From a virus (taxonomy: Duplodnaviria; Heunggongvirae; Uroviricota; Caudoviricetes), in IMG/VR virus record IMGVR_UViG_3300042430_003153: a stretch of DNA of 64,000 bases. One strand, 5' to 3'. The position numbers and the translations under genes were made by a program. Position 1 is the first letter of the stretch, and every line of letters begins with the position of its first letter. Below, one piece after another: positions 17,247 to 54,137 of this stretch. The notes below the pieces were generated by a model. The model did no database searches, was not told where the DNA came from, and saw only the letters and a list, made by a program, of their open reading frames with translations.

Positions 17247-17437
17247 AAGATTTATTTAAAAGAAAGCCTCGTAAAATAGAAGATGATTTTGCTCCTGTTG
17301 GAACAAAAGATTGTGAAATGAAGTGTGAACGTCGAGTTATAATGATGTCAAACGGTCCGGTTATTGTTTGTGAAGGTTGTAAAAGAATAGTAATGGATAA
17401 TAGAGATGAAGGCGGTAATTCAGATAGTTCTAATTAA
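17243..17437 (+). CDS. small zinc-ribbon protein
   Basis: 64 aa with CEMKC...CEGC pattern (two CxxC pairs). Confidence 0.4.
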   Translation: MKDLFKRKPRKIEDDFAPVGTKDCEMKCERRVIMMSNGPVIVCEGCKRIVMDNRDEGGNSDSSN

Positions 17438-17963
17438 TTTTATTGTTTACTCCGTTACATATTTAATGGAGATTAATGGATTATATCTAAATAATCTATT
17501 AGCTCTTTTTCCTTTAAATTCTGAACACTTTTCCATACATCAATTAGTTACACATATTTTTGCACATGCTGACTTTATGCATGTGATGTCTAATATGTTG
17601 ATACTTCTAATAGTGGGTCCTGATGTCGAGAGAATCTTAGGTAAGAAAGAATTTTGGAAGTATTTTATACTTTCTGGTATCTTTAGTTCTGGATTATATT
17701 TCCTAGCAAGTTCACATCCTATAATTGGAGCATCAGGTGCTGTTTTTTCGGTTGCATCAGCATCAATTATAATCAATTGGAAATTACAAAAAGAATCGTG
17801 GTCAATCAGATTGAGAAATACATTTTTTATTTTTTTAATAGCCTCTGAACTATTAGATGTTATTCTTAATAAAAATGATGATGTTGGTCATTTGGCTCAT
17901 GTTCTTGGGGCATCTTTTGGAATAATATACTTTTTTATTTTATCAAAAAAAAAGATACAGTAG
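17406..17963 (+). CDS. rhomboid-family intramembrane serine protease
   Basis: HxxxN TM2 motif (HIFAHADFMHVMSNM), catalytic GASGAV (GxSG) and TM6 AHVLGASFG (catalytic His). Several hydrophobic helices. Start may be the downstream ATG. Confidence 0.8.
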   Translation: MKAVIQIVLINFIVYSVTYLMEINGLYLNNLLALFPLNSEHFSIHQLVTHIFAHADFMHVMSNMLILLIVGPDVERILGKKEFWKYFILSGIFSSGLYFLASSHPIIGASGAVFSVASASIIINWKLQKESWSIRLRNTFFIFLIASELLDVILNKNDDVGHLAHVLGASFGIIYFFILSKKKIQ

Positions 17964-18004
17964 TAAATAATCTAATATATAATCAGTAAAAAAAATTATT
18001 ATAT

Positions 18005-19093
18005 ATGAAGAAATTATTATTATTTTTATTTCTTGCGGTTCAATTTATTAGTCTATCTCAGACACAATACCGTAATGACTTTGTTGAAACCTTCTCAACT
18101 GATTGGTCTGGAGAATGGTTCATACCAGCTGCTACCACTGGATACTTTAACAACGCATCTGTTAGCACAACATTAAGTGCTGCTATTTACGGTAGTGGTA
18201 ACTCTTCGATTGAACAAGACTGGTATTCATTTCCTAATATCACATTAAATCCATCAAATACATATAAGTTTAAATTCAGATTAGCTTCTTATGCTTTTAG
18301 TAACTCGACTGCTGCAACAAGAGGTTTGGATGCTGCTGATTACATAACTGTTCAAGTTTCAACTAACGGTGGTGTGACTTATGTTAATGAATTACGAATA
18401 ACTGGAAATAGTAACTCTCTTTGGAATTACAGTGCTACTGGTTCTATTACACACTTTGCAAATGGATCTTTCACTAACTTAGCTGCTCCTGCCGGTGACG
18501 TTTATCAAGCACCCAGTGGGACAAACCCTCAAACTTTTTTAAGTAATGGTCCTACTTCTATAACACTTGAATTAGCTCCAGGAATTGGTCAAGTAGCAAT
18601 TGATATCTATTGTAGAATTAATTCGGCTGGTGAAGAGTGGTGGATGGATAACTTTGAGTTGATAGAAACAGTTCCTGTATCTTTACCGGTTGAGTTAACA
18701 AAATTTGAAGCAAGAAGTTCTACCTATTATAATGTTATAAATTGGACAACAGTTTCAGAGTATAACTCTTTACATTATGATTTAGAAATGAGTTTAGATG
18801 GTGAAAATTGGAAATTAATCTCAAATCAAAAAGCGGCTGGATTTTCAAATGAAGAAATAAACTATTCTTTTACTGATTATAATCAAAATCAGTTGACTTA
18901 TTACAGACTTATTCAATATGATAATGATGGTAAATCAAAGGGGTATGGGCCAATAACAGCATTCAAGAAAAAATCTATTAAGAAAGTTGAAAAGTATGTA
19001 AATACAATTGGCCAAGAAATAAATCCTGATAATTACAGTGGTGTTTATTTTGAAATCTACGAAGATGGAACTTCTAATAGATTTTTTAAATAA
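18005..19093 (+). CDS. secreted protein: signal peptide + choice-of-anchor-J/MAM-like domain + T9SS C-terminal sorting domain
   Basis: Signal peptide MKKLLLFLFLAVQFISLSQ. EEWWMDNFELIE motif. C-terminal ~35 aa (VNTIGQEI...SGVYFEIYEDG...RFFK) resemble Por/T9SS CTDs. Confidence 0.5.
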   Translation: MKKLLLFLFLAVQFISLSQTQYRNDFVETFSTDWSGEWFIPAATTGYFNNASVSTTLSAAIYGSGNSSIEQDWYSFPNITLNPSNTYKFKFRLASYAFSNSTAATRGLDAADYITVQVSTNGGVTYVNELRITGNSNSLWNYSATGSITHFANGSFTNLAAPAGDVYQAPSGTNPQTFLSNGPTSITLELAPGIGQVAIDIYCRINSAGEEWWMDNFELIETVPVSLPVELTKFEARSSTYYNVINWTTVSEYNSLHYDLEMSLDGENWKLISNQKAAGFSNEEINYSFTDYNQNQLTYYRLIQYDNDGKSKGYGPITAFKKKSIKKVEKYVNTIGQEINPDNYSGVYFEIYEDGTSNRFFK

Positions 19094-19120
19094 TAATTTG
19101 TATTATCTTTATTTTTTCCA

Positions 19121-19128
19121 TATATTTG
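19121..19128 (+). promoter_or_regulatory. Bacteroidetes-type -7 promoter element TATATTTG
   Basis: Motif ends 4 nt before the ATG at 19133. Confidence 0.4.
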
Positions 19129-19132
19129 CAGT

Positions 19133-19492
19133 ATGGATATAAATAGAATTAACGATATGGTAGATAGAAAAGTAATCCAATCCTTTCAGGAGGGATTTTC
19201 TATCGGTGCTATTCAATCTGATTTAATGGTTAGAATGAAAAACTTCATGAAGACTATTGAAAAAGATGATAGTTCTAATTACCAGGAGTTATATAATTCT
19301 GAATTTAGTCAAATCTCAAATATCCGTCTTAGATATGGTATTACTTACATCAAACAATGTGAAAAAAGAATTAAAGATTTGAGTTGGATTTTTGATAAGA
19401 AAAAAAGATTTCCAGGTTATACCAATTCTCAAATTTTTAAGATGATACAATTCAAAGAAAAATTGTTAAAAAAAGAAGATTTAGTCGCTTAA
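19133..19492 (+). CDS. hypothetical protein
   Basis: 119 aa ORF. Confidence 0.45.
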   Translation: MDINRINDMVDRKVIQSFQEGFSIGAIQSDLMVRMKNFMKTIEKDDSSNYQELYNSEFSQISNIRLRYGITYIKQCEKRIKDLSWIFDKKKRFPGYTNSQIFKMIQFKEKLLKKEDLVA

Positions 19493-19519
19493 TTCCTTTG
19501 CTGTTATTGATATTCTCCT

Positions 19520-19527
19520 TATATTTG
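19520..19527 (+). promoter_or_regulatory. Bacteroidetes-type -7 promoter element within conserved 15-mer TCTCCTTATATTTGT
   Basis: Identical 15-mer also at 27267..27281. Motif ends 4 nt before the ATG at 19532. Confidence 0.45.
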
Positions 19528-19531
19528 TATT

Positions 19532-19753
19532 ATGAAAATCGATAAAGGAACACTCTGGAACATTCTTGAAAAATACGACACTAAAGAGTATGAAGCTCTT
19601 TGTGATGGGTTATCTAATATTATCAGAGAAAAAGAAGACATCAACGATTTTCTAAACATCTATACTTACTATGATAAGATTGACAATTCTGATAGAAAGT
19701 TAATCGAAGAGCAGGTTGGAAATAAAATCACCGGAGCGCTTTTCTCAATTTAG
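19532..19753 (+). CDS. hypothetical protein
   Basis: 73 aa ORF. Confidence 0.4.
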   Translation: MKIDKGTLWNILEKYDTKEYEALCDGLSNIIREKEDINDFLNIYTYYDKIDNSDRKLIEEQVGNKITGALFSI

Positions 19754-19787
19754 ATTTATATTACTTTTGATGGGTAATATATAACCT

Positions 19788-20660
19788 ATGAAACCACTAC
19801 TAACTTTATTATTCTCCTTCTTTATTTCATTTTTTTATTGTCAAGTATCACAAGACACGGTAAGTCTTTCCCCACAAGAGTTATTTGAATTTAACTCAAG
19901 ATGGAACAATTTAGGTGTATCACAAATTTATGTAGACTTTTCAAAAGATGTTTTATCGACTTCCGACTTATCATTTGGAGTTGTTGGTAAAAGAGTATCT
20001 ACTACACTTAATCTATCATATAATATCCAGTCTAAAAATGGCAAATGGAGTAATATGATATTAAGTTCAATTAATCCACTCTGGAAATATTATGGAATTG
20101 GTTATGGATTATCTATGACTACTGATAAAAGAAATACTACACTACAAACTATGTTGTCAAGTGATTTTAATTTTCAAAATAATATAAATATATCAATAAT
20201 AGATGTCTATAAAACTAAAAAGTTAGGTAAATTTGGATGGAGTTTAACTGCATCAAAAACATACTGGGGTGAATGGGAAGGCCCCTGGGAAGGACAATAC
20301 ATAGTAGATTCACTTGGAAATTGGGTTTCTAATGTTTACCCTATGAATCCACCATCTAATCAATTAACAACGAGAGCTATGGTGATGTATACTTACTCAA
20401 TTAAAACAAAAATTGTTGATATATCACCCCAGATTTTTGTAACTGGTGATATTTACAAAGTTTTTAAAAGTCCTGAATTAAATATTAGTTATTTTGACGA
20501 TTTTAATTTAGATATTTATTATGGTGTAAATATGAATTGGAAAATCACTAAGAAGTTTGTTTTAAATACCACAATAAGATTTAACAATACTTATGATAAG
20601 GTTGATTTAGGATTTAAAAAGAGTAATCCTATTCTATTTATGATAGGAACAAGTTTCTAA
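19788..20660 (+). CDS. secreted protein, possible outer-membrane beta-barrel
   Basis: Signal peptide MKPLLTLLFSFFISFFYCQ. Alternating amphipathic strands. C-terminal aromatic residue (..IGTSF). Confidence 0.5.
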   Translation: MKPLLTLLFSFFISFFYCQVSQDTVSLSPQELFEFNSRWNNLGVSQIYVDFSKDVLSTSDLSFGVVGKRVSTTLNLSYNIQSKNGKWSNMILSSINPLWKYYGIGYGLSMTTDKRNTTLQTMLSSDFNFQNNINISIIDVYKTKKLGKFGWSLTASKTYWGEWEGPWEGQYIVDSLGNWVSNVYPMNPPSNQLTTRAMVMYTYSIKTKIVDISPQIFVTGDIYKVFKSPELNISYFDDFNLDIYYGVNMNWKITKKFVLNTTIRFNNTYDKVDLGFKKSNPILFMIGTSF

Positions 20661-21349
20661 GACTTTGATATTTTAACTTTTATACCAACAGTCAATTTGT
20701 GAATCATACGTGTTTCACTATCACTTCTATAATTAATCAAATCCTGTATAGTTAAATTTACTTTATTCTTTGGAAATAAGACTAATTGATTGCTAGCGTT
20801 TATTATTTGATTATTGAAATCAGTCATACTGGGTTGAAAATAAACTTCGCTTATAAACTGAATCTTTTCTGTTGTCCATTTAATTCTTGTTCTTAATGAA
20901 TGTCTGAAATAATCTTTTTCTATTCCGTTTGCGAAAACTGTTTTTTGATACAAACCAGCATAGGATACTGATATTTTGAATTTATCTTTTTGTTCTTTTT
21001 TAATACCGCCTCCGATACCAATAAAGTTATCGTTATCAATTCCTCTAATAAAAGAGTAGTTGTATGTATGTGTTACGAAGGCGTCAAATTTAGAATTATT
21101 ATATCTAATATTTTGTCTACTTAAATATTCATTATTTGTAAGTTGTGGTGAATATTGAATTATATAAGATGGGTTATAATCAAATCCAAATTTTTTATAA
21201 TCCAACGAGTTAATACCACCTAAGGTAAGAGTGAGTTGATTACCTGTTTTAGTTGTTCCATAAACACCGGTTAAGGTATTATCAAAAGACCATTTTAACT
21301 GACCGAGACTAAGCAAAGGCAATAAGCAAAATAAAAGTAAAAGTTTCAT
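20657..21349 (-). CDS. secreted protein, possible outer-membrane beta-barrel
   Basis: Signal peptide MKLLLLFCLLPLLSLGQ. Gly/Tyr/Asn-rich beta-strand-like repeats. Confidence 0.5.
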   Translation of the reverse strand: MKLLLLFCLLPLLSLGQLKWSFDNTLTGVYGTTKTGNQLTLTLGGINSLDYKKFGFDYNPSYIIQYSPQLTNNEYLSRQNIRYNNSKFDAFVTHTYNYSFIRGIDNDNFIGIGGGIKKEQKDKFKISVSYAGLYQKTVFANGIEKDYFRHSLRTRIKWTTEKIQFISEVYFQPSMTDFNNQIINASNQLVLFPKNKVNLTIQDLINYRSDSETRMIHKLTVGIKVKISKS

Positions 21350-27415: not shown

Positions 27416-27925
27416 ATGAATACTTGGATAGATAAACAATTTTCTGACTTTCTTGAAGAAGAAAGAAAGAATTGTTATTGGTTTTGGTTTAAAGGTAAGA
27501 TTACACAGAAAAGAAAACTATCTGGTGAGATATATGAACAAAACTTATCAGGAACTTTGGAGTGGAATGGAATTAGATTTCAGAATGGATTTAATCATTG
27601 TTTTAATATTCTAACAAATAGTTATATGAGAGGATTAAAAGAAGGAAAATACAACGGTCAAACTAAATCAGAGTTTGATAAGAATAAAATACGGGTTAGT
27701 GATATTTGGATTAAATCAGATGGTGATGTGGATAAAGCAATCACACTTGCAAAAACACAAGCTAATCGAATTACAGACGAGTGGAAAGCCCTAAATAGAG
27801 CGATGTGTGCTAAACAAATGGGTTATGAAGAAATATTTGAGACTTTCTTTCAACGTGCTTATGAGTTAGGTTCAGTCTCTAAACAAGAATACAGAGAATA
27901 TAAATTAGAAAAATTAGGAATATAA
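27416..27925 (+). CDS. hypothetical protein
   Basis: 169 aa ORF. Confidence 0.5.
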   Translation: MNTWIDKQFSDFLEEERKNCYWFWFKGKITQKRKLSGEIYEQNLSGTLEWNGIRFQNGFNHCFNILTNSYMRGLKEGKYNGQTKSEFDKNKIRVSDIWIKSDGDVDKAITLAKTQANRITDEWKALNRAMCAKQMGYEEIFETFFQRAYELGSVSKQEYREYKLEKLGI

Positions 27926-30724: not shown

Positions 30725-32185
30725 ATGATAATTAAGAACATTCACGAAAAATTACTCAACGGTATTCAAACAATGTTGATTGACACTAAAATCAACTTGC
30801 CTTACTACGGTGAGTTCAACCTACACGTCAGTTTCCACGAGCAAGATTCAATTGGAACTTGTGCTGTAAATGTTACCTCAAAAGGTATGAACTTTTACTA
30901 CTCTCCAAAGTTTTTGGAAAATATGTCACAAAAAGAAGTTAACTTTATTACTCTTCACGAGGACTTTCACCTTCTTTTTAACCACCCTCGTAGAACAATC
31001 ACTGGTCAGTATGACCACAAATTGTCTAACATCGCTCAAGATATGATTATCAATCACGTTATCTGGGAAGATATTCCACACGCTTTTGTAGAAATTCCAA
31101 AGTCTCCAGATGGTAAGAATATGGCTCTGTTTGTTCCAAAAGAATATACAGGGAAACTTATCTTTGAAGAGCTTTATGAGTGGTTGAAAGATGAGAAAGA
31201 AAAATGGCAAAAAGAGCAAAAACAGAACTCTGAGTGTCAGTCTTGTAAAGGATCTGGTAAAAAAGACCAATCACAGAAAGGTGACCAACCTGGTGAAGGA
31301 CAACAACCTGGTGAAGGTAAAGGTGAGAAAAAAGATGGTGAAGGAGAAGGTCAGGGAGAGTCTTGTCCAGATTGTCAGGGAACTGGTAACGAAGGAGGTA
31401 ATGACTCTAGTGGAAAACCATCTTATGGGCCTTACGGTAAAAACCCATCAAAAGATGGTGATTCATTAGACACTTGGTCTAAAGAGCAAATCTTCCAAGA
31501 TATGGAAAACGGTAACGGTGAGTATCTTGACAAACACATCGGTGATGATGTTCCTGAGGAACTGAGAGATGCGATGGTGAAAGATGTGATGGAAAGACTT
31601 GCGGCTCGTGGACTATCAGCGGGTAATGTTGAGCAAACACTTAACAAACTTCGTAAGAAACGTAAAGATTATCTTCGTGAAATCAAAAGAGCGGTTTCTA
31701 ATATGATTTTTGGAACTGTTAAAGAAAGAACTATCGTTAAACCTAATCGTAAGGGTATCTCTGGTTTGAAAGGAGCTCGTAAAGTGAAAACTAAGATTAA
31801 TGTTGGTCTTGATACTTCTGGTTCAATGGGTGGTCAGGGAACGTTTGAAAGAGTTCTCTCATATGTTTACAGAAACGATATTGAAATCAATTTCATGGAA
31901 AGTGATACTCAAGTAAACTGGGTAGAGAACATCAAAAGTAAAAGACAACTTGAAAGTATTCCGATTAAAGGATTAGGTGGAACCTGTTTACAACCAATGA
32001 TTGACTACATTGTAGAACATCACAACGATTGTAATAGTGTCTTATTGACAGATGGTTACACCGATACTCTTGATTTTTCAAAAGTAAGAGGTAGAGTTTT
32101 GATTATCTCGGTTGGTGTTAAGTGTCCAATTTCAAGAACCAATGGTAAGGTGAAACAAATTACCATTGAGGGTAATGAAAAGTAA
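30725..32185 (+). CDS. metallopeptidase-domain + VWA-domain protein (DUF2201/PF13203-PF09967-like) with Gly-rich linker containing two CxxCxGxG zinc knuckles
   Basis: LHEDFHLLFNH (HExxH), C-terminal MIDAS-like DTSGSMGG, and linker CQSCKGSG / CPDCQGTG. Confidence 0.7.
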   Translation: MIIKNIHEKLLNGIQTMLIDTKINLPYYGEFNLHVSFHEQDSIGTCAVNVTSKGMNFYYSPKFLENMSQKEVNFITLHEDFHLLFNHPRRTITGQYDHKLSNIAQDMIINHVIWEDIPHAFVEIPKSPDGKNMALFVPKEYTGKLIFEELYEWLKDEKEKWQKEQKQNSECQSCKGSGKKDQSQKGDQPGEGQQPGEGKGEKKDGEGEGQGESCPDCQGTGNEGGNDSSGKPSYGPYGKNPSKDGDSLDTWSKEQIFQDMENGNGEYLDKHIGDDVPEELRDAMVKDVMERLAARGLSAGNVEQTLNKLRKKRKDYLREIKRAVSNMIFGTVKERTIVKPNRKGISGLKGARKVKTKINVGLDTSGSMGGQGTFERVLSYVYRNDIEINFMESDTQVNWVENIKSKRQLESIPIKGLGGTCLQPMIDYIVEHHNDCNSVLLTDGYTDTLDFSKVRGRVLIISVGVKCPISRTNGKVKQITIEGNEK

Positions 32186-32190
32186 AAAAA

Positions 32191-32216
32191 GTCTCAGAGA
32201 AATCTGAGACTTTTTT
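32191..32216 (+). terminator. rho-independent terminator
   Basis: Stem GTCTCAGAGAAATCTGAGAC followed by TTTTTTATTT. Confidence 0.6.
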
Positions 32217-32249
32217 ATTTTTGACCAAAATTATTTAATATATAGTCAT

Positions 32250-33944
32250 ATGAAATTGTTCAAATATGACGAATTTATCACTGAGTCTCAGTTACACTTC
32301 TTATTGGAAGCTAATGTGAATTTTACAAAAGAATTTATATCTATTTTGGGTAGAGTTGATTCTCCTATTTCTAAAAAACTTATTGATATTGAAGGTAGAG
32401 AGATTGATATAAATCAAAATTATATTGGTATAAATAAAGAAAAAACAGACACGATTTTCTTTAAACCAGATGATAAAGTTGGTAAAGTTGCTAAAGTAGT
32501 TAGTCAAAATGGAATTTATCCACAAATCACATATCAACTTAGTAAAATTGAAGGCAGTGGAGTTGATAAGTATGAAGAGTCTGACTTTGTAAATCCTGAA
32601 AACGATACAGTTGGTCAAGTTGTAAAAGAATATTCTTTAGAAGAAATAAGTAATTTTCTTCCTGACTATAGATCAAACTTACAGTATATGTTTATTACTG
32701 AAAATCCACTTGTTCTTTTTCAATGGATTAAAGATAGGAAAAAATATCAAATTTTAATCAATAAAAATTCCATCAACACTGGACCAGAAGCTGTTCGTAG
32801 TTCAGAGATAGCTGTTGGTAGATTTGTTAGAGCTATACTTACAAAGGCTGGTCATAAATTCACAGATGCTGAAATTGAACAATTTGTTTACAAGTATAGA
32901 GCTGAAGTAGAAAAAGAAAAGAATGTATTAGATTTAAGATTTAAAGTTGTTGAAGGAAGTGATATTAAAAAATACTATCATAAAAGTATGTATGAGAGTG
33001 AATCTGGAAGTTTAGGAAGTTCGTGTATGCGTTATGATAGATGTCAGAGCTATTTAAGTATTTATACAGATAATAGTCAATGTAAACTTTTATTATTAAT
33101 GTCAGAAACAGAACCTGATAAAATTTGTGGAAGAGCTATACTTTGGGAGATGGAACCTTATGAACTATCTACAAAAGTTATGGAAAGAATTTATAGTACT
33201 AGAACCGCAGATGAACAGTTGTTCAAAGAGTGGGCTATTAAAAATGGATACTGGTTTAAATCAAAACAAGACTTTAGTGAATATACTGAATTTGAATTTC
33301 ATAAAGAAGATGGAACTGTTGAGAAAAGACAGGGTGAGTTCTCTGTCAAATTAGACAATAAAGGTGAATATTCATATTATCCTTATATGGATTCATTTAA
33401 GTATTATGATCCATATAAAGGTGTTCTTTATAACTCATCAAACTTTGATTATGAATATGAACTAACTGATACAGAAGGTGGAAATGGTTCTTGTTCTGAG
33501 TGTGGTGGTAGTGGTAGAGTTGAGTGTGGTGATTGTGATGGTGATGGAACCAAAGAATGTTACGAATGTGATGGAAATGGTTCTGTTAGTTGTGAAGACT
33601 GTGATGGAGGGGGTAAAGAAGACTGTAATGTCTGTGATGGTGAAGGTGAAATTGAATGTTCAACCTGTGATGGAAATGGTCAAGATGATTGTGATGATTG
33701 TGGTGGTGATGGTGAAATCGATGGTGAGGAATGTGAAAGTTGTTCAGGAAGTGGAAAACAAGATTGTTCAGATTGTTCTGGTGAAGGTAAAAAAGAATGC
33801 TACAAATGTGATGGTGATGGAAACTACGAATGTAAAAACTGTGACGGTGAAGGTAGTTTAGAATGTGATGATTGTGATGGATCAGGTGAAAAAGAGTGTT
33901 ACAATTGTGATGGTAATGGTAGACACAGTTGTCCAGAATGTTAA
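32250..33944 (+). CDS. CTS-bearing protein with C-terminal array of 13 DnaJ-type CxxCxGxG zinc-knuckle repeats
   Basis: N-terminus MKLFKYDEFITES. Last ~155 aa are CxxCxGxGxxE repeats with 11-aa period, ending CPEC. Confidence 0.6.
   Translation: MKLFKYDEFITESQLHFLLEANVNFTKEFISILGRVDSPISKKLIDIEGREIDINQNYIGINKEKTDTIFFKPDDKVGKVAKVVSQNGIYPQITYQLSKIEGSGVDKYEESDFVNPENDTVGQVVKEYSLEEISNFLPDYRSNLQYMFITENPLVLFQWIKDRKKYQILINKNSINTGPEAVRSSEIAVGRFVRAILTKAGHKFTDAEIEQFVYKYRAEVEKEKNVLDLRFKVVEGSDIKKYYHKSMYESESGSLGSSCMRYDRCQSYLSIYTDNSQCKLLLLMSETEPDKICGRAILWEMEPYELSTKVMERIYSTRTADEQLFKEWAIKNGYWFKSKQDFSEYTEFEFHKEDGTVEKRQGEFSVKLDNKGEYSYYPYMDSFKYYDPYKGVLYNSSNFDYEYELTDTEGGNGSCSECGGSGRVECGDCDGDGTKECYECDGNGSVSCEDCDGGGKEDCNVCDGEGEIECSTCDGNGQDDCDDCGGDGEIDGEECESCSGSGKQDCSDCSGEGKKECYKCDGDGNYECKNCDGEGSLECDDCDGSGEKECYNCDGNGRHSCPEC
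33478..33944 (+). repeat. degenerate 33-bp tandem repeat (coding for CxxCxGxG units)
   Basis: tgtgatggtgatgg-type units recur every 33 nt. They also create a spurious alternate-frame ORF (33478..33861). Confidence 0.7.
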
Positions 33945-34516: not shown

Positions 34517-35083
34517 ATGAAAGTAATGTTTTTAGATTTTGATGGTGTAATGTGTCTTTCTGAGCAGTGGGGTGGTCGTGCTAAAAAAATGCTAAAATTT
34601 AAAAAAGAATTTCCTGGTTCATCTGAAGATGATATGCCAGCTTGGATTAAGTTAGACAACTTTGATTTTAAATCAACTAAAGTTCTTAATTCAATCTTAC
34701 TTCATTATGATGTTGAAATAGTTGTTAGTTCAGATTGGAAGTTGTTCGCTACTTTAGAAGAACTTCAAGATATGTTTGATAAATACGGTGTTATCAAATC
34801 ACCAATTGATGTTACTCCTACTCTTGTTAAGTATGAGTCTAAATCTCAATTCACACAATCTGAACTTGAGCAGTGGAGAGTTAAAGAAATCAAAATGTGG
34901 TTGGATCAACATCCAGAAGTAACCAATTGGGTTGCTATTGATGATATGGATTTAGGTGAAAAGTTTGGACCAGTTTCTGGTAATTCAAATGGTGGTTTAT
35001 CTAATTTTGTTGTCACTAAACAATATATTGGAATTAAACAATCTGGAATAAAAGAAAAAATCATTAAATTTTTAAATGATTAA
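34517..35083 (+). CDS. HAD-superfamily hydrolase-like protein (possible nucleotidase/3'-phosphatase)
   Basis: N-terminal FLDFDGV motif resembles HAD motif I (DxDGT/V). Rest is weakly supportive. Confidence 0.45.
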   Translation: MKVMFLDFDGVMCLSEQWGGRAKKMLKFKKEFPGSSEDDMPAWIKLDNFDFKSTKVLNSILLHYDVEIVVSSDWKLFATLEELQDMFDKYGVIKSPIDVTPTLVKYESKSQFTQSELEQWRVKEIKMWLDQHPEVTNWVAIDDMDLGEKFGPVSGNSNGGLSNFVVTKQYIGIKQSGIKEKIIKFLND

Positions 35084-35857: not shown

Positions 35858-36748
35858 ATGAAATATATCAAAAAATTCAACGAAGAGTTATATCCTAAGA
35901 CTTATAGAAGTGCTGGTAGTAAATTAGATTATTATAATAAGTCAAAAAATGCAGCAAAACTATTTGATTTTGCTGATGAAAAGGAGTTTGGTTTTTATAA
36001 TATGAATTGGGCAAATAATAATCCAAGCATTACAATAAAAGATTCATCTTTTACTGAACCTAGATTGACTGGTATTTATTATGCTTCAACTCCAACAAAA
36101 TACAAAGATGAATTTAAAGGTTTTAATGGAATGTCATATGGAAAAGATGCAGAAACGTTAGCAGAAGATTTAGTTGAAAGGTGGAAATTGGGTCAGGATG
36201 GACTTAATATAAGTTTTGAGTTTTCATTTAAGGCTACAAGAGAAACTGTTGAAAAAAGTGGTAGAAGCACAAATTTTTGTTGGAATGCTAATAATCCTAC
36301 TGCTAAAGAAGTAAAAGCCTTTAACTTACAAATAGACTTAAGTGAATGGTATAATGGAATTGATGATTGGGATGCTGATGCTAGATGGGATGCTGAATAC
36401 GATGGTGTAGAATTTACTCCAACTACTTTGATAGAATTTTATAATTGGTCTGCATGTTATAATGTGATGATAAAAAACCCTAATGATAGTCAATATGGTA
36501 TTTTCAGTGATAGAAAGTCAGCAATTAAATTTAAAAACTGGTTATTAACTAATCACTTAGATGATATCAAAGATGCTATTATGAATGTTTTAAGAGTTGT
36601 TGGTGGTACATCTGAAAATATTGAAAAAGCGGTTGATGCTTTTACAAAAATGAAAATTCAAGGTCTTTATGATGATGATTTACCAACTCGTGGTGGATCT
36701 GGTGATTGGATTCGTAGTAGATGGTATGAAAAAGATATAAGTATATGA
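35858..36748 (+). CDS. paralog family member 1 (CTS-like N-terminus, conserved C-terminal FxxRxxAxKFKNxL motif)
   Basis: MKYIKKFNEELYPKTYRSAGSKL ... FSDRKSAIKFKNWLL. Confidence 0.6.
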   Translation: MKYIKKFNEELYPKTYRSAGSKLDYYNKSKNAAKLFDFADEKEFGFYNMNWANNNPSITIKDSSFTEPRLTGIYYASTPTKYKDEFKGFNGMSYGKDAETLAEDLVERWKLGQDGLNISFEFSFKATRETVEKSGRSTNFCWNANNPTAKEVKAFNLQIDLSEWYNGIDDWDADARWDAEYDGVEFTPTTLIEFYNWSACYNVMIKNPNDSQYGIFSDRKSAIKFKNWLLTNHLDDIKDAIMNVLRVVGGTSENIEKAVDAFTKMKIQGLYDDDLPTRGGSGDWIRSRWYEKDISI

Positions 36749-37470
36749 AATATTTAAAGAGATTTAACGAAGAATTAAGACCACAGACTTATATGTCTGC
36801 TGCTAGAAAACTTGACAAATTAGGTCATCATGATAGAGCAAATGCCCTAAAAGACTGGGCTAAAGAAACTGAGAAAAAAGAAGAAATGATTAAGTGGCAA
36901 GACCACATTCAAGATTATGCTCAGTTTGGAACATTTAAGATGACTATAAAAAATCCAGAAACTAACGAGACTTTGACAGGTGACTTTCACTTAGATGTTA
37001 ACTTTGATGATTTGGCATTTGGTGATGAACCAGAAAGTGGTATTACTTTTTTTATAGGTTTAATTCCAACATCTGAAGATTTAATCTATCAGTATATGGA
37101 ACTTTGTCCAGATTATGATTTTGGAAACGGTTTCTTCTGGGGCAAGATATTTACTTTAGGATATGAATTAGAAGATACGGTTAAATTTACTAAATGGAAT
37201 ATGTGGGACTATGATGATGAAATGAACGGTAAAGTCAATTTTGCTGATAGAGCATCTGCTAATAAGTTTAAGAATTTACTTATTCAAATATTTAGTAACC
37301 CGCAATTAGGTTACCCATCTGGACACACGGATGCTGATGACTTATATGAAAAATTAACAAATTGTATCCTAGCTGAGAATTCATTTTCTTCTGATTATGG
37401 ATTTAGATTAGAGGATGCTGCTGAATACATAAGAACAATATCACCAAATTTACTTTCTTCTACACTATGA
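36745..37470 (+). CDS. paralog family member 2
   Basis: MKYLKRFNEELRPQTYMSAARKLDKLGH ... FADRASANKFKNLLI. Start overlaps the upstream stop. Confidence 0.6.
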   Translation: MKYLKRFNEELRPQTYMSAARKLDKLGHHDRANALKDWAKETEKKEEMIKWQDHIQDYAQFGTFKMTIKNPETNETLTGDFHLDVNFDDLAFGDEPESGITFFIGLIPTSEDLIYQYMELCPDYDFGNGFFWGKIFTLGYELEDTVKFTKWNMWDYDDEMNGKVNFADRASANKFKNLLIQIFSNPQLGYPSGHTDADDLYEKLTNCILAENSFSSDYGFRLEDAAEYIRTISPNLLSSTL

Positions 37471-38327
37471 GATATTTAAAAAGATTTAATGAAGAGTTAA
37501 AAGCATCTACTTACAAAAAAGCAGGTGAAAAATTTACTCAGATGGGTCACAAAAGAAGAGGTGCTGAATTATTAGATTATGCAACTCAAGTTGAATTAAG
37601 AGAAAAATCTGATAAACTTTTACAAGCTCAAAATGTAAATAAAGAGTTTGGTTTATTTGATATTACAGTGGCAAGAGGTTATGGGTCAAATAAGAAAGAT
37701 ATATTTTCTGGTCAATTTTATCTACAGATGTGTTTAGAATCTGATTGGTTTAAAGACCAGTTACATGATTGGTTAGGTGAAGGTATGACTTGGTCAATGG
37801 GAATTGCTATGGAATTTGCCATTATACCAGCTGATGATGAGACACTTAAAATGTTTGAAACAAGCGAAGATTCCGATATTATATATTTTAGAAATAACTC
37901 TATGTGGAGTGATGACTATAGATACTGGACTAATAGATTATGGCTTAATCTTTTTGGTAAAGGTGGGGTTCCTTCTTATACATGTGGATCTGGTGGATTT
38001 GAAGATAGAGATGGATTTACGTTTCACTTTAATTCTAGATCAGAGGCTATGAAATTTAAAAACTTGTTATCTAATACATTAGAAGGAAAATCAAATTGGG
38101 GTGCTTGGAATGAAAGAACAATTGCTGACCAATTAAAATCAACGCTTAGTTTAGATGAAGAGTTGTGGAGAAAAAAACTGATGGATCATTACTTAAATGG
38201 TAGAGAAGATGAATATGATTTAACAGATCCAGATACCTGGCCAAAAAATCCTTTTGGAGAAGATACCTATAAAGGTGCTGTTGATGCTGCTAAGAGAATG
38301 TCAGTAAATGGTTTATATAGAGATTAA
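37467..38327 (+). CDS. paralog family member 3
   Basis: MRYLKRFNEELKASTYKKAGEKFTQMGH ... FNSRSEAMKFKNLLS. Start overlaps the upstream stop. Confidence 0.6.
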   Translation: MRYLKRFNEELKASTYKKAGEKFTQMGHKRRGAELLDYATQVELREKSDKLLQAQNVNKEFGLFDITVARGYGSNKKDIFSGQFYLQMCLESDWFKDQLHDWLGEGMTWSMGIAMEFAIIPADDETLKMFETSEDSDIIYFRNNSMWSDDYRYWTNRLWLNLFGKGGVPSYTCGSGGFEDRDGFTFHFNSRSEAMKFKNLLSNTLEGKSNWGAWNERTIADQLKSTLSLDEELWRKKLMDHYLNGREDEYDLTDPDTWPKNPFGEDTYKGAVDAAKRMSVNGLYRD

Positions 38328-38330
38328 AAG

Positions 38331-39596
38331 ATGAAGTATTTAAAAAGATATGAAGAAGCTGTCGGTGTTAGATTGAAATCAGAATTGAAATCAACTGTCG
38401 AAGACTTGCTTATTGAATTAAGAGATGAAGAGTTCGATACAAAAGTGTCTGAAATAGATTATCATTCACAAAAAGAAAGAGTTAAAGTTTCTGTGAGTAG
38501 GAATAAAGAATTCACATATAGTGATATAAAAATACCAATTGAATCTATTTGGTCTTATTTAAGTGGAGAAGGATTTGAAATAGAACACTTTACTTGTGTA
38601 GAAGATGAAAACTTTGAAGAATCAGAAGATGGATTCACAATTAACCAGAAAATTAAAGGTTATCATTGGACAACAGATCCTGAAACATTTGGTGTTAAGT
38701 CTATTGAAAAAGAATACCAAAGAAGACCTCAAATTGCAAAATCAGAAGTATATAATCCGATTAATTTTGATAGAATTAATAGCTGGTTATTTGAGATTTC
38801 ATTCACTAAGGATAAAATTGAGATAGATAGAAGTAGAGGTCTTTCAACAAATGAAGATCTTGACCCAAGAACATACATAAGTGCGGCTGATAAATTAAAA
38901 AGTTTAGGTCATATTAAAAGACCTGAACAACTAAGAGCTTGGGCAGAGGTTGTTAGACAAAGAGAAAGAGATGCTAAACATAAGATGACGCTTGAACAAG
39001 CAAAAAAATTAGGTCAATTTCAACTAAGATTTGTTAAGGGAAGTGAAATAAGATTTGTAAATTGTTATATACAATTGTATTTTAATTCTGACTATTACCT
39101 AAGTGAGATGTTACCAGAATGGTTAGATGATGAGAGAAATAGTCTTTGGCCACAGTTTATGTTTGGAGTTCATCCAGTAAGTGAAGAAGATTTAGAAGTT
39201 TTAGATTGGTATGTCGGTGGTGATATTAAAGGTTATACAAACTCAGATGGTATAATTTGGTTACAAGATGTTTATATCAATCTGACAAATCAAAGATGCA
39301 AAGATCACCATGGTGTAAAATTACCTATGGTGTCTACAGGAGCTGTATCAATTGAATGTTCTGAATTTTCTGAAGTTTATTTTTCAAACAGAAGAGAAGC
39401 TATTAAGTTTAGAAATTTATTAGTTGGTCTTTTTGAAGGAGATATAGATTACATACAACCGAATGGTAAAGACTTTAAAGAAGATATAATCGAAACTTGG
39501 TGTGAACATGAAGAAAGACCAGTTGAATTGTCAGAGTTGGAAGATTTTATTGATAAACTTAGAGTGGTGAGATTAAATTCATTATATAGAGATTAA
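38331..39596 (+). CDS. paralog family member 4 (extra N-terminal domain plus internal copy of the family N-module)
   Basis: MKYLKRYEE at the N-terminus. Internal NEDLDPRTYISAADKLKSLGH. C-terminal FSNRREAIKFRNLLV. Confidence 0.6.
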   Translation: MKYLKRYEEAVGVRLKSELKSTVEDLLIELRDEEFDTKVSEIDYHSQKERVKVSVSRNKEFTYSDIKIPIESIWSYLSGEGFEIEHFTCVEDENFEESEDGFTINQKIKGYHWTTDPETFGVKSIEKEYQRRPQIAKSEVYNPINFDRINSWLFEISFTKDKIEIDRSRGLSTNEDLDPRTYISAADKLKSLGHIKRPEQLRAWAEVVRQRERDAKHKMTLEQAKKLGQFQLRFVKGSEIRFVNCYIQLYFNSDYYLSEMLPEWLDDERNSLWPQFMFGVHPVSEEDLEVLDWYVGGDIKGYTNSDGIIWLQDVYINLTNQRCKDHHGVKLPMVSTGAVSIECSEFSEVYFSNRREAIKFRNLLVGLFEGDIDYIQPNGKDFKEDIIETWCEHEERPVELSELEDFIDKLRVVRLNSLYRD

Positions 39597-39612: not shown

Positions 39613-40785
39613 ATGAAAATTAAAAAATATCAACAGTTTTTAGAATCACAAAGTTCAGATATGTGGAATATAATTCCACAATCGGTTAAAGAATTGCAAT
39701 TACTTTTCAAATCAAAAGGAAAAAAATTGTATGTCGTCGGAGGTGCCGTTAGAGACTTCCTCACTGGAGATAAACCAAAAGACTTTGACTTAGCAACTGA
39801 TGCTCTCCCAGATGAGGTATTAGAAATCATCGGAAAAGATTATAAGACTAACTTACAGGGTAAAGCATTTGGAGTTGTAGTTGTATTCACCGATGATCAA
39901 CCAGAGGGAATGGAAATTGCTACATTCAGAGAAGATGTTAGTAAAGGAAGAAACCCTGAAGTTAAATTAGGAGTTACTATTGAAGATGATGTTAAAAGAA
40001 GAGATTTGACTTATAACGCACTTTTCTATGACTTAGATAATAAAGAGATTGTTGATTTGACTGGAGGTCGTGAGCATTTGAAAAATGGTATAACTCAAAT
40101 GGTTGGTGATCCAACTGAAAGATTTGATGAAGATTCTTTAAGAATTCTTAGAGCTTTCAGATTTGCTTCTCGTTATGGACACCCTCTTCATAAAGATACT
40201 GAAGTGGCAATTGAAAAAAGAAAACAATTAGAAAATATAGAACCTGAAACCGGTGAAATGAAAAGAATTTCTCAAGAAAGAGTTTGGGAAGAAATGAAAA
40301 AAGCTTGGAAACAAGCAAGAGATTATAGAAACTATCTTAACTTCTTTACTAAGTTTGATATGTGGTCTGAAGTTTTTCCTGGTTCTGAAATCAACACTGA
40401 CTTAGTTGATTCGAAAGACTTTGTAGTTGTTATTTCTAACTTATTTAAATTGGAAAATCCAGATGGATTAGAAAAAAGATTAGTTCAAGATTATAAAATC
40501 GAATCAGAAGTAGCAACTAAAATTGTTTTCTTATTAAGATTATTAAAACTAACTCCAGAACTTGCTTTCGATATGTATAAATCAAAACTTCAATGTCATA
40601 TTGAAGATAAAACTATTTTAGAATGGTTTAGAGTGTTGGGTATAAATGATCCTATTAAGATAAAATTTGTTGAATATAAACCAACTACATCAGCTCAGGA
40701 CTTAATGGCTAATGGATTCAAAGGAAAACAATTAGGTGATGAAATCAAAAGAATTGAAATTGAAAATTTCAAAAGTATGTTATAA
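39613..40785 (+). CDS. cca: tRNA nucleotidyltransferase (CCA-adding enzyme) head domain with CTS-like N-terminal extension
   Basis: YVVGGAVRDFLTGDKPKDFDLAT and RRDLTYNALFYD (PolyA_pol head motifs). Preceded by a ~30-aa extension MKIKKYQQFLESQ. Confidence 0.8.
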   Translation: MKIKKYQQFLESQSSDMWNIIPQSVKELQLLFKSKGKKLYVVGGAVRDFLTGDKPKDFDLATDALPDEVLEIIGKDYKTNLQGKAFGVVVVFTDDQPEGMEIATFREDVSKGRNPEVKLGVTIEDDVKRRDLTYNALFYDLDNKEIVDLTGGREHLKNGITQMVGDPTERFDEDSLRILRAFRFASRYGHPLHKDTEVAIEKRKQLENIEPETGEMKRISQERVWEEMKKAWKQARDYRNYLNFFTKFDMWSEVFPGSEINTDLVDSKDFVVVISNLFKLENPDGLEKRLVQDYKIESEVATKIVFLLRLLKLTPELAFDMYKSKLQCHIEDKTILEWFRVLGINDPIKIKFVEYKPTTSAQDLMANGFKGKQLGDEIKRIEIENFKSML

Positions 40786-40816: not shown

Positions 40817-41284
40817 ATGGTTTACTATGTTTCTTATTTAAAAGACCGTGTCGGTAATAATTATCTTGGTTTAAATATACCTTTTGATATAGTAGAGCCT
40901 TATCTAAACGAACTTGAAAGTATTTTAGGTGAAGAAGAATTTAAAATCTATACAAAAAACCAAGCTGATAGAGATTCTGGTAAACATCATTTAACATTGA
41001 TTAATGTTTCTGACTATAACCGATTGATTACAGAAGTTGGAATGGACAAATTCATCAATTCATTGGAATTAATTTTTAATTATGAAGTAGATGATTTAGA
41101 AATGCCTGGAATCGGAATGGCTACTAAATCAGACAACACTTCATATTTTATAGTTTGTGAATCTAATAAATTAGATGCGATAAGAACAAGATATGATTTA
41201 CCAAAATTTGACTTTCACATAACTTTAGGTTTCAAGTGGAAAGATGTTCACGGAGTTCCGAAAAATAAAATCATAGAAAAGTAA
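40817..41284 (+). CDS. 2H phosphoesterase superfamily protein (LigT/cyclic phosphodiesterase-like)
   Basis: Two H-x-T-x motifs (HHLTLI and HITLGF) spaced ~90 aa apart. Confidence 0.6.
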   Translation: MVYYVSYLKDRVGNNYLGLNIPFDIVEPYLNELESILGEEEFKIYTKNQADRDSGKHHLTLINVSDYNRLITEVGMDKFINSLELIFNYEVDDLEMPGIGMATKSDNTSYFIVCESNKLDAIRTRYDLPKFDFHITLGFKWKDVHGVPKNKIIEK

Positions 41285-44404: not shown

Positions 44405-45670
44405 ATGGATATTATTACTAAATTTTCTAAATTCTTAAATGAATTAAATGAAGCCAGAACAGTAGACTTACCAATTTTAGATGTTGTAATCGATGATGAT
44501 GGTTTAATCTATAATGGAGAACAAGCTGATTTAGTTAAAGGTAGAGTTCAAAGAGAACCTGGAAGAATCGTTACTAGAATTTTAGGAACTGATAATAAAG
44601 AATATCCTGCAGGAATTGACAAAAATGGAAATGTAGTTGCTTTACAAAAAGACACAGAAAACAGAGCACTTAACTCAGCTGGTCAACCAATACCGGTTCC
44701 ACAATTTATACAAAAGAAATATAAAATTGGTCACCAATTCTATTACGAAGATCCAGAGTTTGATTATTACTCTGTGATTCCAATTACACCAACTGGGTGG
44801 ATTAACGTAAAGATTGATATGGAAATTGTGAAAAGAGTTAAAAGATATGCTAAAACTCTTGGAACAAATAACAGAGGACACGAATCTTTTATTTCTAAGT
44901 TAATGGAATTTGAAAAACTATCAACTCAAAGTCGTTCACCACAATATATTTCAAGACTTAAAAGAAGCACTATTCAAAAAGAAATGTCTGCAATTCTTTT
45001 ACTTCACCATATAAATGAAATTAAAGACTTCTTTAATCCATCACAGGGTGGTTTTTTATTTGAATCATTTGTTGCTGGTTTGATTCCAGACGCAAGAGTA
45101 AAAGAAGATAACTCACCAGTTGATATAAAATCAGCAAGTGGTAGATATCAATTAAAATTAGTCGATTTTAAAACAGAATATATTGAAGTAACAAAAGATA
45201 ATGACCCAACCAAATCACCTTGGTTAGAACATTATATGATGGCTTTAAAATATGTCGATAGAATAGATATGTATATTGTTGATGGTAGAATTTTAGAAGA
45301 TAGATACAATAATGATACACTTGAAAATTTAATAACAAAAGGTGGTGCTAAATCTGGACCGAAATTTGCGGTAAAAAGATTAATAGCACTTAATGATCCT
45401 ACTTTAGTTAGAAAGTTCACAATCGAACTAACCGATATTGATGGTAGAATCAAAAACTTAGGTGATAGTCTAAAACAAAGTTTGAAAGAGTTATATGATG
45501 AGTTAAGTAGATTTCAATATAATGTTGAAACAATCATTACTGGAGTTAACGAAAAAGGAAAAGTTGTCAGAGACCAATACGAATTTGATGTTTATCATTT
45601 ATCAGCTGAAAAGAATATCATAAATTTATCACATCACCTAAAAAGGCTAGTATCAGATATAAACAAATAA
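44405..45670 (+). CDS. hypothetical protein with CTS-like N-terminus
   Basis: N-terminus MDIITKFSKFLNELNEA. 421 aa. Confidence 0.5.
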   Translation: MDIITKFSKFLNELNEARTVDLPILDVVIDDDGLIYNGEQADLVKGRVQREPGRIVTRILGTDNKEYPAGIDKNGNVVALQKDTENRALNSAGQPIPVPQFIQKKYKIGHQFYYEDPEFDYYSVIPITPTGWINVKIDMEIVKRVKRYAKTLGTNNRGHESFISKLMEFEKLSTQSRSPQYISRLKRSTIQKEMSAILLLHHINEIKDFFNPSQGGFLFESFVAGLIPDARVKEDNSPVDIKSASGRYQLKLVDFKTEYIEVTKDNDPTKSPWLEHYMMALKYVDRIDMYIVDGRILEDRYNNDTLENLITKGGAKSGPKFAVKRLIALNDPTLVRKFTIELTDIDGRIKNLGDSLKQSLKELYDELSRFQYNVETIITGVNEKGKVVRDQYEFDVYHLSAEKNIINLSHHLKRLVSDINK

Positions 45671-47832: not shown

Positions 47833-48792
47833 ATGGCAAAGTATAGAATATTATCACTTGATGGTGGTGGATTGAGAGGAGTCATCCCGGTATTAATCTT
47901 GAAAAAAATTGAAGAGATGACTGGGAAAAAAATCTGGGAATTATTCGATTGTATTGTTGGGACTTCTACAGGGGGAATTATTGCAGCTGGTGTAACCGTA
48001 ACTAAAAATGGCAAAACGCCACATTTAGATTTAGAAACACTTTATAAATTATATACTGAAGAAGGCTCTGTTATATTTCCACAGCCTAAAAATAAATTTC
48101 AAAAAATATTCAAAGATATTAATTCAGTTTTCAATCCTAAATATTCACCAGATGGTTTAGATAAACTCTTAACTCAATATTTTGGTGATCTAACACTTAA
48201 AAATACACTCAAGCCTATTATAGTAACTTCTTATGACTTAAAGTCAAATCAAATTATTATGTTCAAAACCAGGAATGCTCAATGGCATGACGAAAGATTC
48301 AACGTTAAATTGAAAGATGTTTGTAGAGCAACATCAGCAGCTCCGACATATTTACCTTCATATGAAATGAAGTTTGATGGTAAAGATAGAGTCTTAGTCG
48401 ATGGTGGTGTTTACATCAATAACCCAGTTTTAGCCGCTGTATCTGATGTAATTAAAAATTGTGATATCAAATTGTCTGATATCGAATGTCTTTCTATAGG
48501 AACAGGCATACATAGTGAGAGTCTTGGTGTAAAAACAGAAGGTTGGGGATTAATAAATTGGGTTAAACCTATCACAACAATCATGATGCAAGCATCATCA
48601 ATGTCTGTCGACTATCAAAGTGACCAATTGTTAAAAAAACATTTGAGACTTCAAATAAAAATTGAAGACCAATCAAAAACTGATATGGCTGATTCAAGAC
48701 CAGAAACCACTCAATATTTAGTAGATAAAGTTAAAAAAGAAATATTTGATGATGTTGAATTGATGAAAAAGTTACAAAGATTCTTTAAGTAA
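47833..48792 (+). CDS. patatin-like phospholipase
   Basis: LDGGGLRG (oxyanion hole), GTSTGG (GxSxG nucleophile) and VDGGVYINNP (catalytic DGG). Confidence 0.8.
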   Translation: MAKYRILSLDGGGLRGVIPVLILKKIEEMTGKKIWELFDCIVGTSTGGIIAAGVTVTKNGKTPHLDLETLYKLYTEEGSVIFPQPKNKFQKIFKDINSVFNPKYSPDGLDKLLTQYFGDLTLKNTLKPIIVTSYDLKSNQIIMFKTRNAQWHDERFNVKLKDVCRATSAAPTYLPSYEMKFDGKDRVLVDGGVYINNPVLAAVSDVIKNCDIKLSDIECLSIGTGIHSESLGVKTEGWGLINWVKPITTIMMQASSMSVDYQSDQLLKKHLRLQIKIEDQSKTDMADSRPETTQYLVDKVKKEIFDDVELMKKLQRFFK

Positions 48793-52814: not shown

Positions 52815-52847
52815 TCCTTTGATAATTTTTTTATATAAATTTTAACT

Positions 52848-52997
52848 ATGATAACACTTATTTTACTACCGATTGTTGTCGTTACCTCATTTTTAATTAG
52901 CAAATACTCTGAGCGTTTACAATGGAATAAACTTATTAAACTAGGTAGAATTCCACGACCAAGCAATTCTAAATTGGACCACAGTAAGTATTGGGTA
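52848..52997 (+). CDS. small single-TM peptide (49 aa)
   Basis: MITLILLPIVVVTSFLISKY... Below ORF-track size cutoff; hand-translated. Confidence 0.25.
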
Positions 52998-53895: not shown

Positions 53896-53912
53896 TAACA
53901 AACTAACCGTAA

Positions 53913-54134: not shown

Positions 54135-54137
54135 TAA

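Follow-up and report, generated by a model that had tools for sequence, protein, structure and literature searches.

Two adjacent genes on the plus strand of a 64,000-nucleotide (nt) stretch of viral DNA (IMG/VR record IMGVR_UViG_3300042430_003153) are considered here; the whole of this stretch is referred to as the window. Gene 1 (30725–32185) encodes a 486-amino acid (aa) protein of the DUF2201 type in which a metallopeptidase domain is joined to a von Willebrand factor A (VWA) domain. Gene 2 (32250–33944) encodes a 564-aa protein from a large, unannotated phage family that consists of a leader, a β-rich N-terminal region, a predicted GNAT-like core, and a tail of cysteine motifs that is very probably folded as a ladder of zinc sites. 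In an original prediction made before any database search, the two genes were proposed to be a functional pair. The window has a G+C content of 29.8% and, among public sequences, is most closely related to the four largest phage genomes, LR745206, LR756502, LR756504, and LR756501/3 (634–735 kb). The four correspond to those of 634, 636, 642, and 735 kb in Al-Shayeb et al. 2020, from the Mahaphage clade, for which Bacteroidetes hosts were predicted (PMC7162821). Both genes probably come from a Mahaphage-type huge phage with a host among the Bacteroidota.

The cysteine array of gene 2

The tail of the gene 2 protein (residues 415–561) contains 13 exact CxxCxGxG motifs, in agreement with the number first reported, and a C-terminal CPEC that brings the total to 14 CxxC motifs. 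The units follow the consensus C-x-x-C-D-G-x-G-x-(V/I)-E and are spaced by 11 aa (33 nt) throughout, except for one step of 14 aa between units 7 and 8. The array may be considered in terms of a first arm of seven CxxCxGxG units with an 11-aa period (33492–33713; residues 415–488), a central linker with the sequence EIDGEE that is predicted to form a hairpin turn and is the only spacer to depart from 11 aa (33714–33731; residues 489–494), and a second arm of six CxxCxGxG units followed by the terminal CPEC (33732–33941; residues 495–564). From the earlier description of 13 back-to-back units with a 33-nt DNA period, the 11-aa spacing was retained, but the units are not 13 equivalents since they are arranged 7+7 around a linker, and no 33-nt tandem repeat was detected in the gene 2 DNA by Tandem Repeats Finder (TRF). 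The 13 DNA units are on average 63% identical, which is close to the level expected from the Cys, Gly, and Asp codons that they share. The low identity and the lack of a TRF repeat indicate that, as DNA, the repeat is ancient.

A whole-protein search with the gene 2 product returned 416 homologues, and the best 120 were examined (40–94% identity, nearly all 555–590 aa in length). Exactly 14 CxxC motifs are found in 112 of these 120. All 28 cysteines of the array, including those of the first arm, are invariant in an alignment of 66 non-redundant homologues that extends down to 42% identity; far from being absent or frame-shifted in close relatives, the repeats are in frame and conserved. The array is far beyond chance and is under strong purifying selection. 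Active repeat dynamics had been anticipated for the array; however, the comparison of copy number among relatives speaks for a fixed number of units that are old and diverged. Across the wider family, arrays of 4–16 CxxC motifs are present. With 14, the window protein sits at the top of this range, and its description as an extreme expansion of the DnaJ knuckle repeat was appropriate.

Hairpin topology of the array

Homologues that depart from 14 motifs are informative as to how the units are paired. Among the best 120, the rare examples with 10, 12, or 16 CxxC motifs are always split 5+5, 6+6, or 8+8 around a single long spacer. A profile search with the N-terminal 412 aa provided a broader sample of 4600 cluster representatives, and tails were counted in 146 newly listed representatives. 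The CxxC counts in these 146 are mostly even (0, 4, 6, 8, 10, 12, and 14), with the few odd counts probably due to degenerate motifs. In 82 of 85 arrays, it is the central gap that deviates most from 11 aa, compared to ~0.14 per array expected by chance. Furthermore, of 16 unusual spacers (9, 13, 15, or 17 aa), 12 are matched by a spacer of the same length at the mirrored place in the opposite arm, as in the spacer series 11, 13, 11, 18, 11, 13, 11 and 11, 17, 14, 17, 11. When spacers were shuffled, a mean of 2.0 mirrored cases was obtained and none of 2000 shuffles reached 12.

Because the long spacer is central and the lengths of the other spacers covary in mirror fashion, the data point to an antiparallel, two-armed structure. 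The tail is very probably a hairpin in which unit i is matched with unit 15−i to make a seven-site zinc ladder, each rung being a Zn(Cys)4 centre. A sequential pairing of neighbouring units (1+2, 3+4) is disfavoured because the long spacer would lie inside a pair in a 7+7 array and between pairs in a 6+6 array, and because it leaves the mirrored spacers unexplained. Zinc binding by the tail is suggested by its cysteine pattern, and the stiffness of a rod would be expected of such a ladder. An AlphaFold2 model, in which the short β-strands assigned by DSSP are mirror-placed about residue ~491, is weakly supportive of the hairpin.

Ladders with a period of 11 were also observed, in 3+3 or 4+4 form, in proteins that are unrelated to the gene 2 family (P0405, P0448, P0460, and P0458; loci such as L020 6001–6834). 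A central, acidic 4+4 ladder is carried by a 277-aa family, and other carriers are lipoprotein-like, with 12–13 CxxC motifs and mirror-symmetric spacers, and are not acidic. The zinc ladder with this period is a mobile module.

Comparison with known zinc hairpins

The only solved structures related to the gene 2 array are the cysteine-rich (CR) domain of DnaJ and BSD2. In the case of DnaJ, Martinez-Yamout and colleagues reportedly found in 2000 that motifs 1 and 4 form Zn1 and motifs 2 and 3 form Zn2. Outer motifs are paired with outer motifs and inner with inner, which is the arrangement that the mirror covariation suggests for the gene 2 tail. The DnaJ CR domain (PDB: 1EXK, PF00684) has the CxxCxGxG motif in common with the tail and is its best solved-structure match by profile (E = 1.2e-5). 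It differs in that DnaJ has 4 motifs, 2 Zn, and longer spacers, while gene 2 has 14 motifs (7 Zn predicted), a strict 11-aa period, and a strongly acidic composition. The context is also different: the zinc domain of DnaJ is found between the J/G-F region and the client-binding C-terminal domains, whereas the gene 2 array is at the C-terminus of an unrelated protein. PF00684 was not reported for the gene 2 product at E ≤ 0.1, and Pfam gave no match to a J domain or to DnaJ_C. The BSD2_CRD model (PF25436) scored 26.3 bits on the tail, just under its cut-off of 27. The cysteine-rich domain of BSD2, a Rubisco assembly factor (PDB: 6EKB), has two rungs compared to the seven of gene 2, which has no plastid or Rubisco context.

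The gene 2 tail is very probably the known DnaJ/BSD2 zinc hairpin in an iterated form, attached to an unannotated family. While this hairpin has been known only as a two-zinc unit, the comparative data indicate that it can be extended by successive rungs (2 to 8), and its strictly symmetric arms present a simple and designable rigid-rod motif. A search of the literature for long CxxCxGxG arrays returned only ordinary DnaJ-type domains, including small ones from phages, and no description of the gene 2 family or of a ladder with more than two rungs was found in annotation libraries or the literature; both results are limited evidence of absence.

Acidic tails

The tail of the window protein contains 45 D/E versus 10 K/R for a net charge of −35, and the net charge of the whole gene 2 protein is −49. 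From coordination chemistry, about −14 more would be expected from seven [ZnCys4]2− centres, bringing the tail alone to about −49. The array tails of the representatives average 25% D/E versus 6% K/R, with a more than 2-fold acidic excess in 89 of 95. Family members without arrays often end in short D/E/Y-rich tails, for example EDYDDDYYEDYNEDDD. The LR756502 paralogue that lies beside a DUF2201 gene ends in NYDDGDDYNDYDDDY, and the long acidic tail of gp037 from Cellulophaga phage phi38:1 ends in EELEEDEEVEEEV. Altogether, the tail is replaced by a short, unstructured acidic tail or is absent in 40 of the 146 representatives. Since the tails are acidic with or without an array, the common property at the tail position is therefore negative charge, to which the zinc ladder would add stiffness and, presumably, protease resistance as well.

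The gene 2 family and its conserved core

The N-terminal 412 aa of the gene 2 protein, first described as ~400 aa of unknown sequence, indeed match no Pfam, PHROGs, or NCBIfam family above threshold, and the core domains of 36 family members gave no consistent family from these libraries. The sequence nevertheless belongs to a very large phage family for which a structure search pointed to a putative, distant GNAT-like core. The family has 4600 representatives (50%-identity clusters) at E ≤ 1e-3, with 1609 at E ≤ 1e-30. In annotated phage records, tblastn placed the family at 7, 8, 14, and 15 scattered positions per Mahaphage genome and at a single position in ~73-kb Cellulophaga podophages, where it is always a 'hypothetical protein'. 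The window holds a single copy. As the family is unnamed in any annotation library, its recognition opens up a part of the "dark matter" in the largest phage genomes.

The core domain spans 32847–33485 (residues 200–412), and its conserved part, residues ~206–410, is 38% identical to that of the LR756502 paralogue (E = 1e-34). When modelled alone, the core was predicted with high confidence (pLDDT = 92.4, pTM = 0.84). Structure matches in BFVD were first to uncharacterised family members from marine phages and then, weakly, to GNAT proteins, which are the only characterised folds that were matched. The model is consistent with a distant GNAT-like α/β fold, for which the GNAT-fold acyl/aminoacyl transferases (3fyn, 2eui, FemX, MprF, ATE1) provide the comparison. 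The acyl-CoA motif Q/RxxGxG/A is absent from the β4-α3 loop of the core, which reads TRTAD/SAD with no GxG/A, and none of the GNAT Pfam models matched the 36 family members. Invariant residues are S258-C259-M260, Y272, N275, R295-A296, Y315, P378, and D381; the polar residues among them look like a putative active or ligand site. A WYL_2 identity for the core was considered and rejected, with E-values of 0.02–0.08 in only 1 of 36 members.

Gene 1 and its MoxR-like partner

Gene 1 is an ordinary member of the known DUF2201 family. The original assignment of an HExxH metallopeptidase joined to a VWA domain with a metal ion-dependent adhesion site (MIDAS) was confirmed by both Pfam models: DUF2201_N was matched with E = 3.5e-17 (63.4 bits versus a cut-off of 23.2) and the DUF2201 VWA-like domain with E = 1.3e-6 (29.0 bits versus 26.4). 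The gene 1 product also matches phrog_1314 (E = 1.2e-43) and is 75% and 74% identical to homologues in the huge phages LR756502 and LR745206, respectively. The putative zinc-peptidase motif, HEDFH (30956–30970; residues 78–82), and the MIDAS-type motif of the VWA-like domain, DTSGSMGG (31811–31834; residues 363–370), are present in all 114 full-length homologues at ≥78% identity. The listed 120 matches of this homologue search are all ≥78% identical and are silent on distant contexts. Proteins of this type carry the label 'HNH endonuclease' in PHROGs (phrog_1314) and in many phage records, such as those of phage G (gp576), PA5oct-like phages, and Acinetobacter phages XC38 and Presley. The label is probably a propagated mis-annotation.

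A Gly/Glu-rich linker (31235–31387) bears a CxxCxGxG knuckle at each end, CQSCKGSG (residues 171–178) and CPDCQGTG (residues 214–221), as had been noticed initially. The pair would be enough for one Zn(Cys)4 site. Both knuckles are retained in the 114 close homologues. They are missing from the LR756504 homologue, and in LR756501 a different Cys-rich insert takes their place; the knuckle pair is a lineage-specific insert. Live repeat dynamics are visible in this Gly-rich linker, and not in the gene 2 array, since an 18-nt tandem repeat was detected within the linker by TRF (31278–31318) and the knuckles are separated by 36 to 87 aa in the homologues at ≥78% identity.

Peptidase-VWA proteins of the COG3864 type are usually paired with MoxR-like AAA+ ATPases. 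Gene 1 matches both Pfam models and has the HExxH and MIDAS motifs of such a system; relative to other DUF2201/MoxR systems, its lineage adds the length-variable Gly-rich linker closed by a single knuckle pair. The absence of a nearby MoxR gene, as first remarked, was borne out: no MoxR-like ATPase was found in the 64-kb window by tblastn and phmmer with the MoxR-like proteins of LR756501, LR745206, and cyanophage S-TIM54 as queries, and Pfam scans of 36 window open reading frames (ORFs) gave no match to an AAA+ domain. This absence does not point to a new partner. In LR756501, a 406-aa MoxR-like ATPase (Walker A GKPGMAKS) is encoded ~300 bp downstream of the DUF2201 gene, and in S-TIM54 the MoxR-like gene immediately precedes the DUF2201-like gene. 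In LR745206, LR756502, and LR756504, the distance between DUF2201 and the homologue of this ATPase is 10.3 kb, 24 kb, and 355 kb, respectively. The LR745206 gene directly follows a homologue of ORF 52191–52814 (L019 3935–5056); the syntenic slot of the window (52814–54333) contains other small ORFs and no MoxR according to tblastn and phmmer. A false lead is removed in that the peptidase-VWA gene beside gene 2 is of an ordinary kind, with a MoxR-like partner of its own in relatives.

The N-terminal leader of gene 2

The leader of the gene 2 protein, MKLFKYDEFITES (32250–32288), is nearly invariant across the family at Y6, F9, E12, and S13, and is followed by a second conserved L-x-E/A site, LLE20-A21. 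With a pLDDT of 40–50 in the AlphaFold2 model, the leader is flexible and outside of any folded domain. In phage T4, the capsid-targeting sequence (CTS) is MKTYQEFIAE (PMC8442874), in which residues 4 and 7 are the main determinants of targeting while residues 8 and 10 direct processing by gp21 after L/I-x-E (PMC9026906). When MKLFKYDEFITE is aligned to MKTYQEFIAE, Y6, F9, I10, and E12 occupy the same relative positions as T4 residues 4, 7, 8, and 10, and both ITE12 and LLE20 fit the L/I-x-E cleavage rule. The CTS-like leader that had been noted on gene 2 is a real resemblance at functional positions; membership among CTS-bearing proteins is predicted.

Similar N-termini (M..K[YF]..F[ILV].E) are present within the first 20 aa of 12 of the 90 window ORFs, compared to 2.3% of internal 20-aa windows. 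They include the ORFs at 6927–8057(−), 11064–11756(−), 14018–14734(+), 27416–27925(+), 39613–40785(+), and 44405–45670(+), and a CCA-adding enzyme is among the proteins with such a leader. If the match to the T4 CTS is real, it would serve as a sequence tag for predicting the packaged or ejected proteome of uncultured huge phages.

The region between the two genes

An intrinsic terminator-like hairpin with a perfect 14-bp stem, a GAAA loop, and a T-run was identified by a pattern scan at 32185–32216 on the plus strand, within the 64-bp gap between the genes. Its predicted RNA fold has an energy of −18.4 kcal/mol (z = −5.6) that was reached by none of 200 shuffles. The hairpin is likely a terminator and possibly a bidirectional one. 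Both the hairpin and the T-run are conserved in a relative (L004, ~9940–9975) in which the two proteins are 87% and 77% identical to those of the window. Genes 1 and 2 are therefore probably separate transcription units.

Large Cys-rich genes of the DUF7487 type are inserted beside DUF2201 in relatives (L002 6191–7870(−); L009 4796–6571 and 8073–9965). These are probably homing endonucleases, and the DUF2201 locus looks like an insertion hot spot.

Proposed role and alternative explanations

Gene 2 may encode an effector-type protein from a diversifying, multi-copy family that is made early or ejected. The family has four parts: a CTS-like leader, a variable β-rich region, the conserved core with its putative GNAT-like fold, and a polyanionic C-terminal appendage. 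The core would be responsible for chemistry or binding. The appendage, with its seven zinc rungs, would form a thin, stiff, and protease-resistant rod studded with Asp/Glu that could dock on, or compete for, basic nucleic-acid-binding surfaces of host or phage proteins. Delivery by way of the capsid through the leader is possible. The property under selection may be that of a rigid polyanion which mimics nucleic acid or docks on basic surfaces, and our best guess is that the protein would act as an early or ejected effector and not as a chaperone for its neighbour.

T7 Ocr and ArdA are acidic, DNA-mimic anti-restriction proteins. The likeness to gene 2 concerns the mode of action only, namely an elongated, rigid, and strongly polyanionic surface on a phage protein that is made or delivered early. 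There is no relation to gene 2 in sequence or fold, and stiffness would be imparted by metal staples here and by helices there. Roughly −49 charges (45 acidic side chains and seven [ZnCys4]2−) on a rod of a few nm, a length that is estimated, would give a charge density comparable in magnitude to that of duplex DNA. A more specific form of the proposal, in which the ladder is a metal-stapled polyanionic rod mimicking double-stranded nucleic acid, carried on capsid-delivered multi-copy effectors that jam host DNA-targeting defences or other nucleic-acid-binding proteins, is speculative and would be a long shot.

As a whole, the reading of gene 2 as a zinc ladder hairpin that is independent of gene 1 and has an effector or polyanion role is, on balance, probably correct, though only by a little. 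Several observations weigh against it. In the AlphaFold2 model, the array has a pLDDT of 66–80 near the turn but only 30–45 at the outer rungs. With respect to ejection, gp037 of phi38:1 is located in a non-structural block and is 'hypothetical' while other proteins in the record are labelled structural. With respect to independence, the order gene 1–gene 2 on the same strand is kept in relatives in which the two proteins are 87% and 77% identical. In a relative at 54% identity, a DUF7487 gene is inserted between the DUF2201 and knuckle genes, which are still neighbours, and in LR756502 a gene 2 paralogue adjoins DUF2201 on the opposite strand. Since this adjacency persists in part of the clade, a lineage-specific link between the two genes is conceivable.

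Such a link is the basis of the functional pair proposed at the outset, in which a zinc-dependent holdase, chaperone, or redox module is formed and the knuckle protein replaces the missing MoxR partner. Beyond the adjacency, this explanation could draw on the CxxCxGxG motifs in both proteins, on the relation of the gene 2 tail to the DnaJ CR domain and BSD2, both of which are parts of chaperones, on the MoxR-like ATPase that occupies the slot directly downstream of DUF2201 in LR756501, and on the Hsp20 gene that precedes the MoxR-DUF2201 pair of S-TIM54. However, a conserved terminator hairpin separates the genes and the association is lost with distance. No DUF2201 gene was found within 10 kb of gene 2 homologues at 65% and 42% identity (P0064 and P0099 contigs) or within 8 kb upstream of a member of the family with an acidic tail (P0183 contig). 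LR745206 carries DUF2201 without a neighbour of the gene 2 type, the gene 2 family is scattered in 7–15 copies per genome, and the DUF2201 protein evolves far more slowly than the gene 2 protein. Close relatives retain a MoxR-like gene elsewhere in their genomes. The shared knuckle motif, which had been taken to point to a pair, has lost its force given that the knuckles of DUF2201 are a lineage-specific insert and the ladder module is also found in unrelated protein families. Nor does the gene 2 product have the J domain or DnaJ C-terminal domain of a chaperone, and an acidic, Gly-rich, and apparently rigid ladder whose surface is rich in D/E/G does not resemble a hydrophobic surface for the binding of clients. 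The pairing of gene 2 with the peptidase-VWA gene is weak, the two genes are probably not working partners, and the functional pair is improbable.

Two further explanations concern the virion. In one, the gene 2 product is a capsid-internal protein with a T4-type CTS; the prohead protease would cleave the leader after ITE12 or LLE20, and the packaged protein would be injected along with the DNA. This explanation is compatible with a zinc ladder effector and is a tentative possibility that we consider somewhat doubtful. The YDEFITE of the leader against the YQEFIAE of T4, its near-invariant residues, cleavage sites, and flexibility, and the enrichment of similar N-termini in the window are all in its favour. 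The internal proteins and Alt of T4 are alike in having an N-terminal Y-x-x-F-I-x-E leader and an L/I-x-E site ahead of diverse cargo domains that share the leader alone (PMC3012670, PMC9026906, PMC8442874), and their genes are likewise dispersed and multi-copy. In T-even phages, the internal proteins are diverse anti-defence proteins with only the CTS in common (PMC3012670). On the other hand, the T4 internal proteins are small and basic (PMC8442874), whereas the gene 2 protein is large and very acidic, and its packaging and cleavage are predicted from sequence. The non-structural setting of phi38:1 gp037 is unfavourable, and the occurrence of the leader on a CCA-adding enzyme and many other ORFs may signal another role. 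In the other explanation, the ladder would serve the virion as a spacer or fibre, for example in a whisker, decoration, or tail appendage. A module that is predicted to be stiff and elongated, and which varies by discrete rungs between paralogues in the manner of a ruler, would suit this purpose. It is nonetheless very improbable, as gene 2 lies among genes for replication, repair, and RNA repair and not among structural ones, the core has an enzyme-like conserved site, the tail is absent or exchanged for a short acidic one in the representatives noted above, and the phi38:1 homologue is without a structural label.

Gene setting and other features of the window

Surrounding genes identified with Pfam encode type II topoisomerase subunits, UvdE, a UvrC-like nuclease, a 5'-3' exonuclease, NusG, and DNA methylases, and no structural genes were seen in the Pfam scans of the window ORFs around genes 1 and 2. 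Head genes were likewise lacking from the window and from the loci of relatives that were compared with it. An RNA-repair set flanks the two genes and includes HAD_SAK_2, a CCA-adding PolyA_pol-type nucleotidyltransferase, a 2H-SAK phosphoesterase, and RlaP (ORFs 34517–35083, 39613–40785, 40817–41284, and 15180–16298). An RNA ligase is additionally encoded on contigs of relatives (L006).

Four tandem paralogous genes occupy 35858–39596 of the window. All of their products start with MK/RY[IL]K[KR][FY][NE]E and have no Pfam match, and the block is also present in LR745206 and LR756502 (L001 10195–12587; L002 11195–12789). The window further contains tRNA genes for Leu (anticodon TAA; 56939–57023) and Arg (anticodon TCT; 57059–57133), and encodes a patatin-like phospholipase and an SPFH/Band-7 protein (ORFs among 47833–48792, 54333–55283, 17406–21349, and 60889–62968). 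Several window ORFs have signal-peptide or lipoprotein-like N-termini, for example MKKLLLFLFLAV and MKPLLTLLFSFF, which suggests that secreted or envelope proteins are encoded by the phage.

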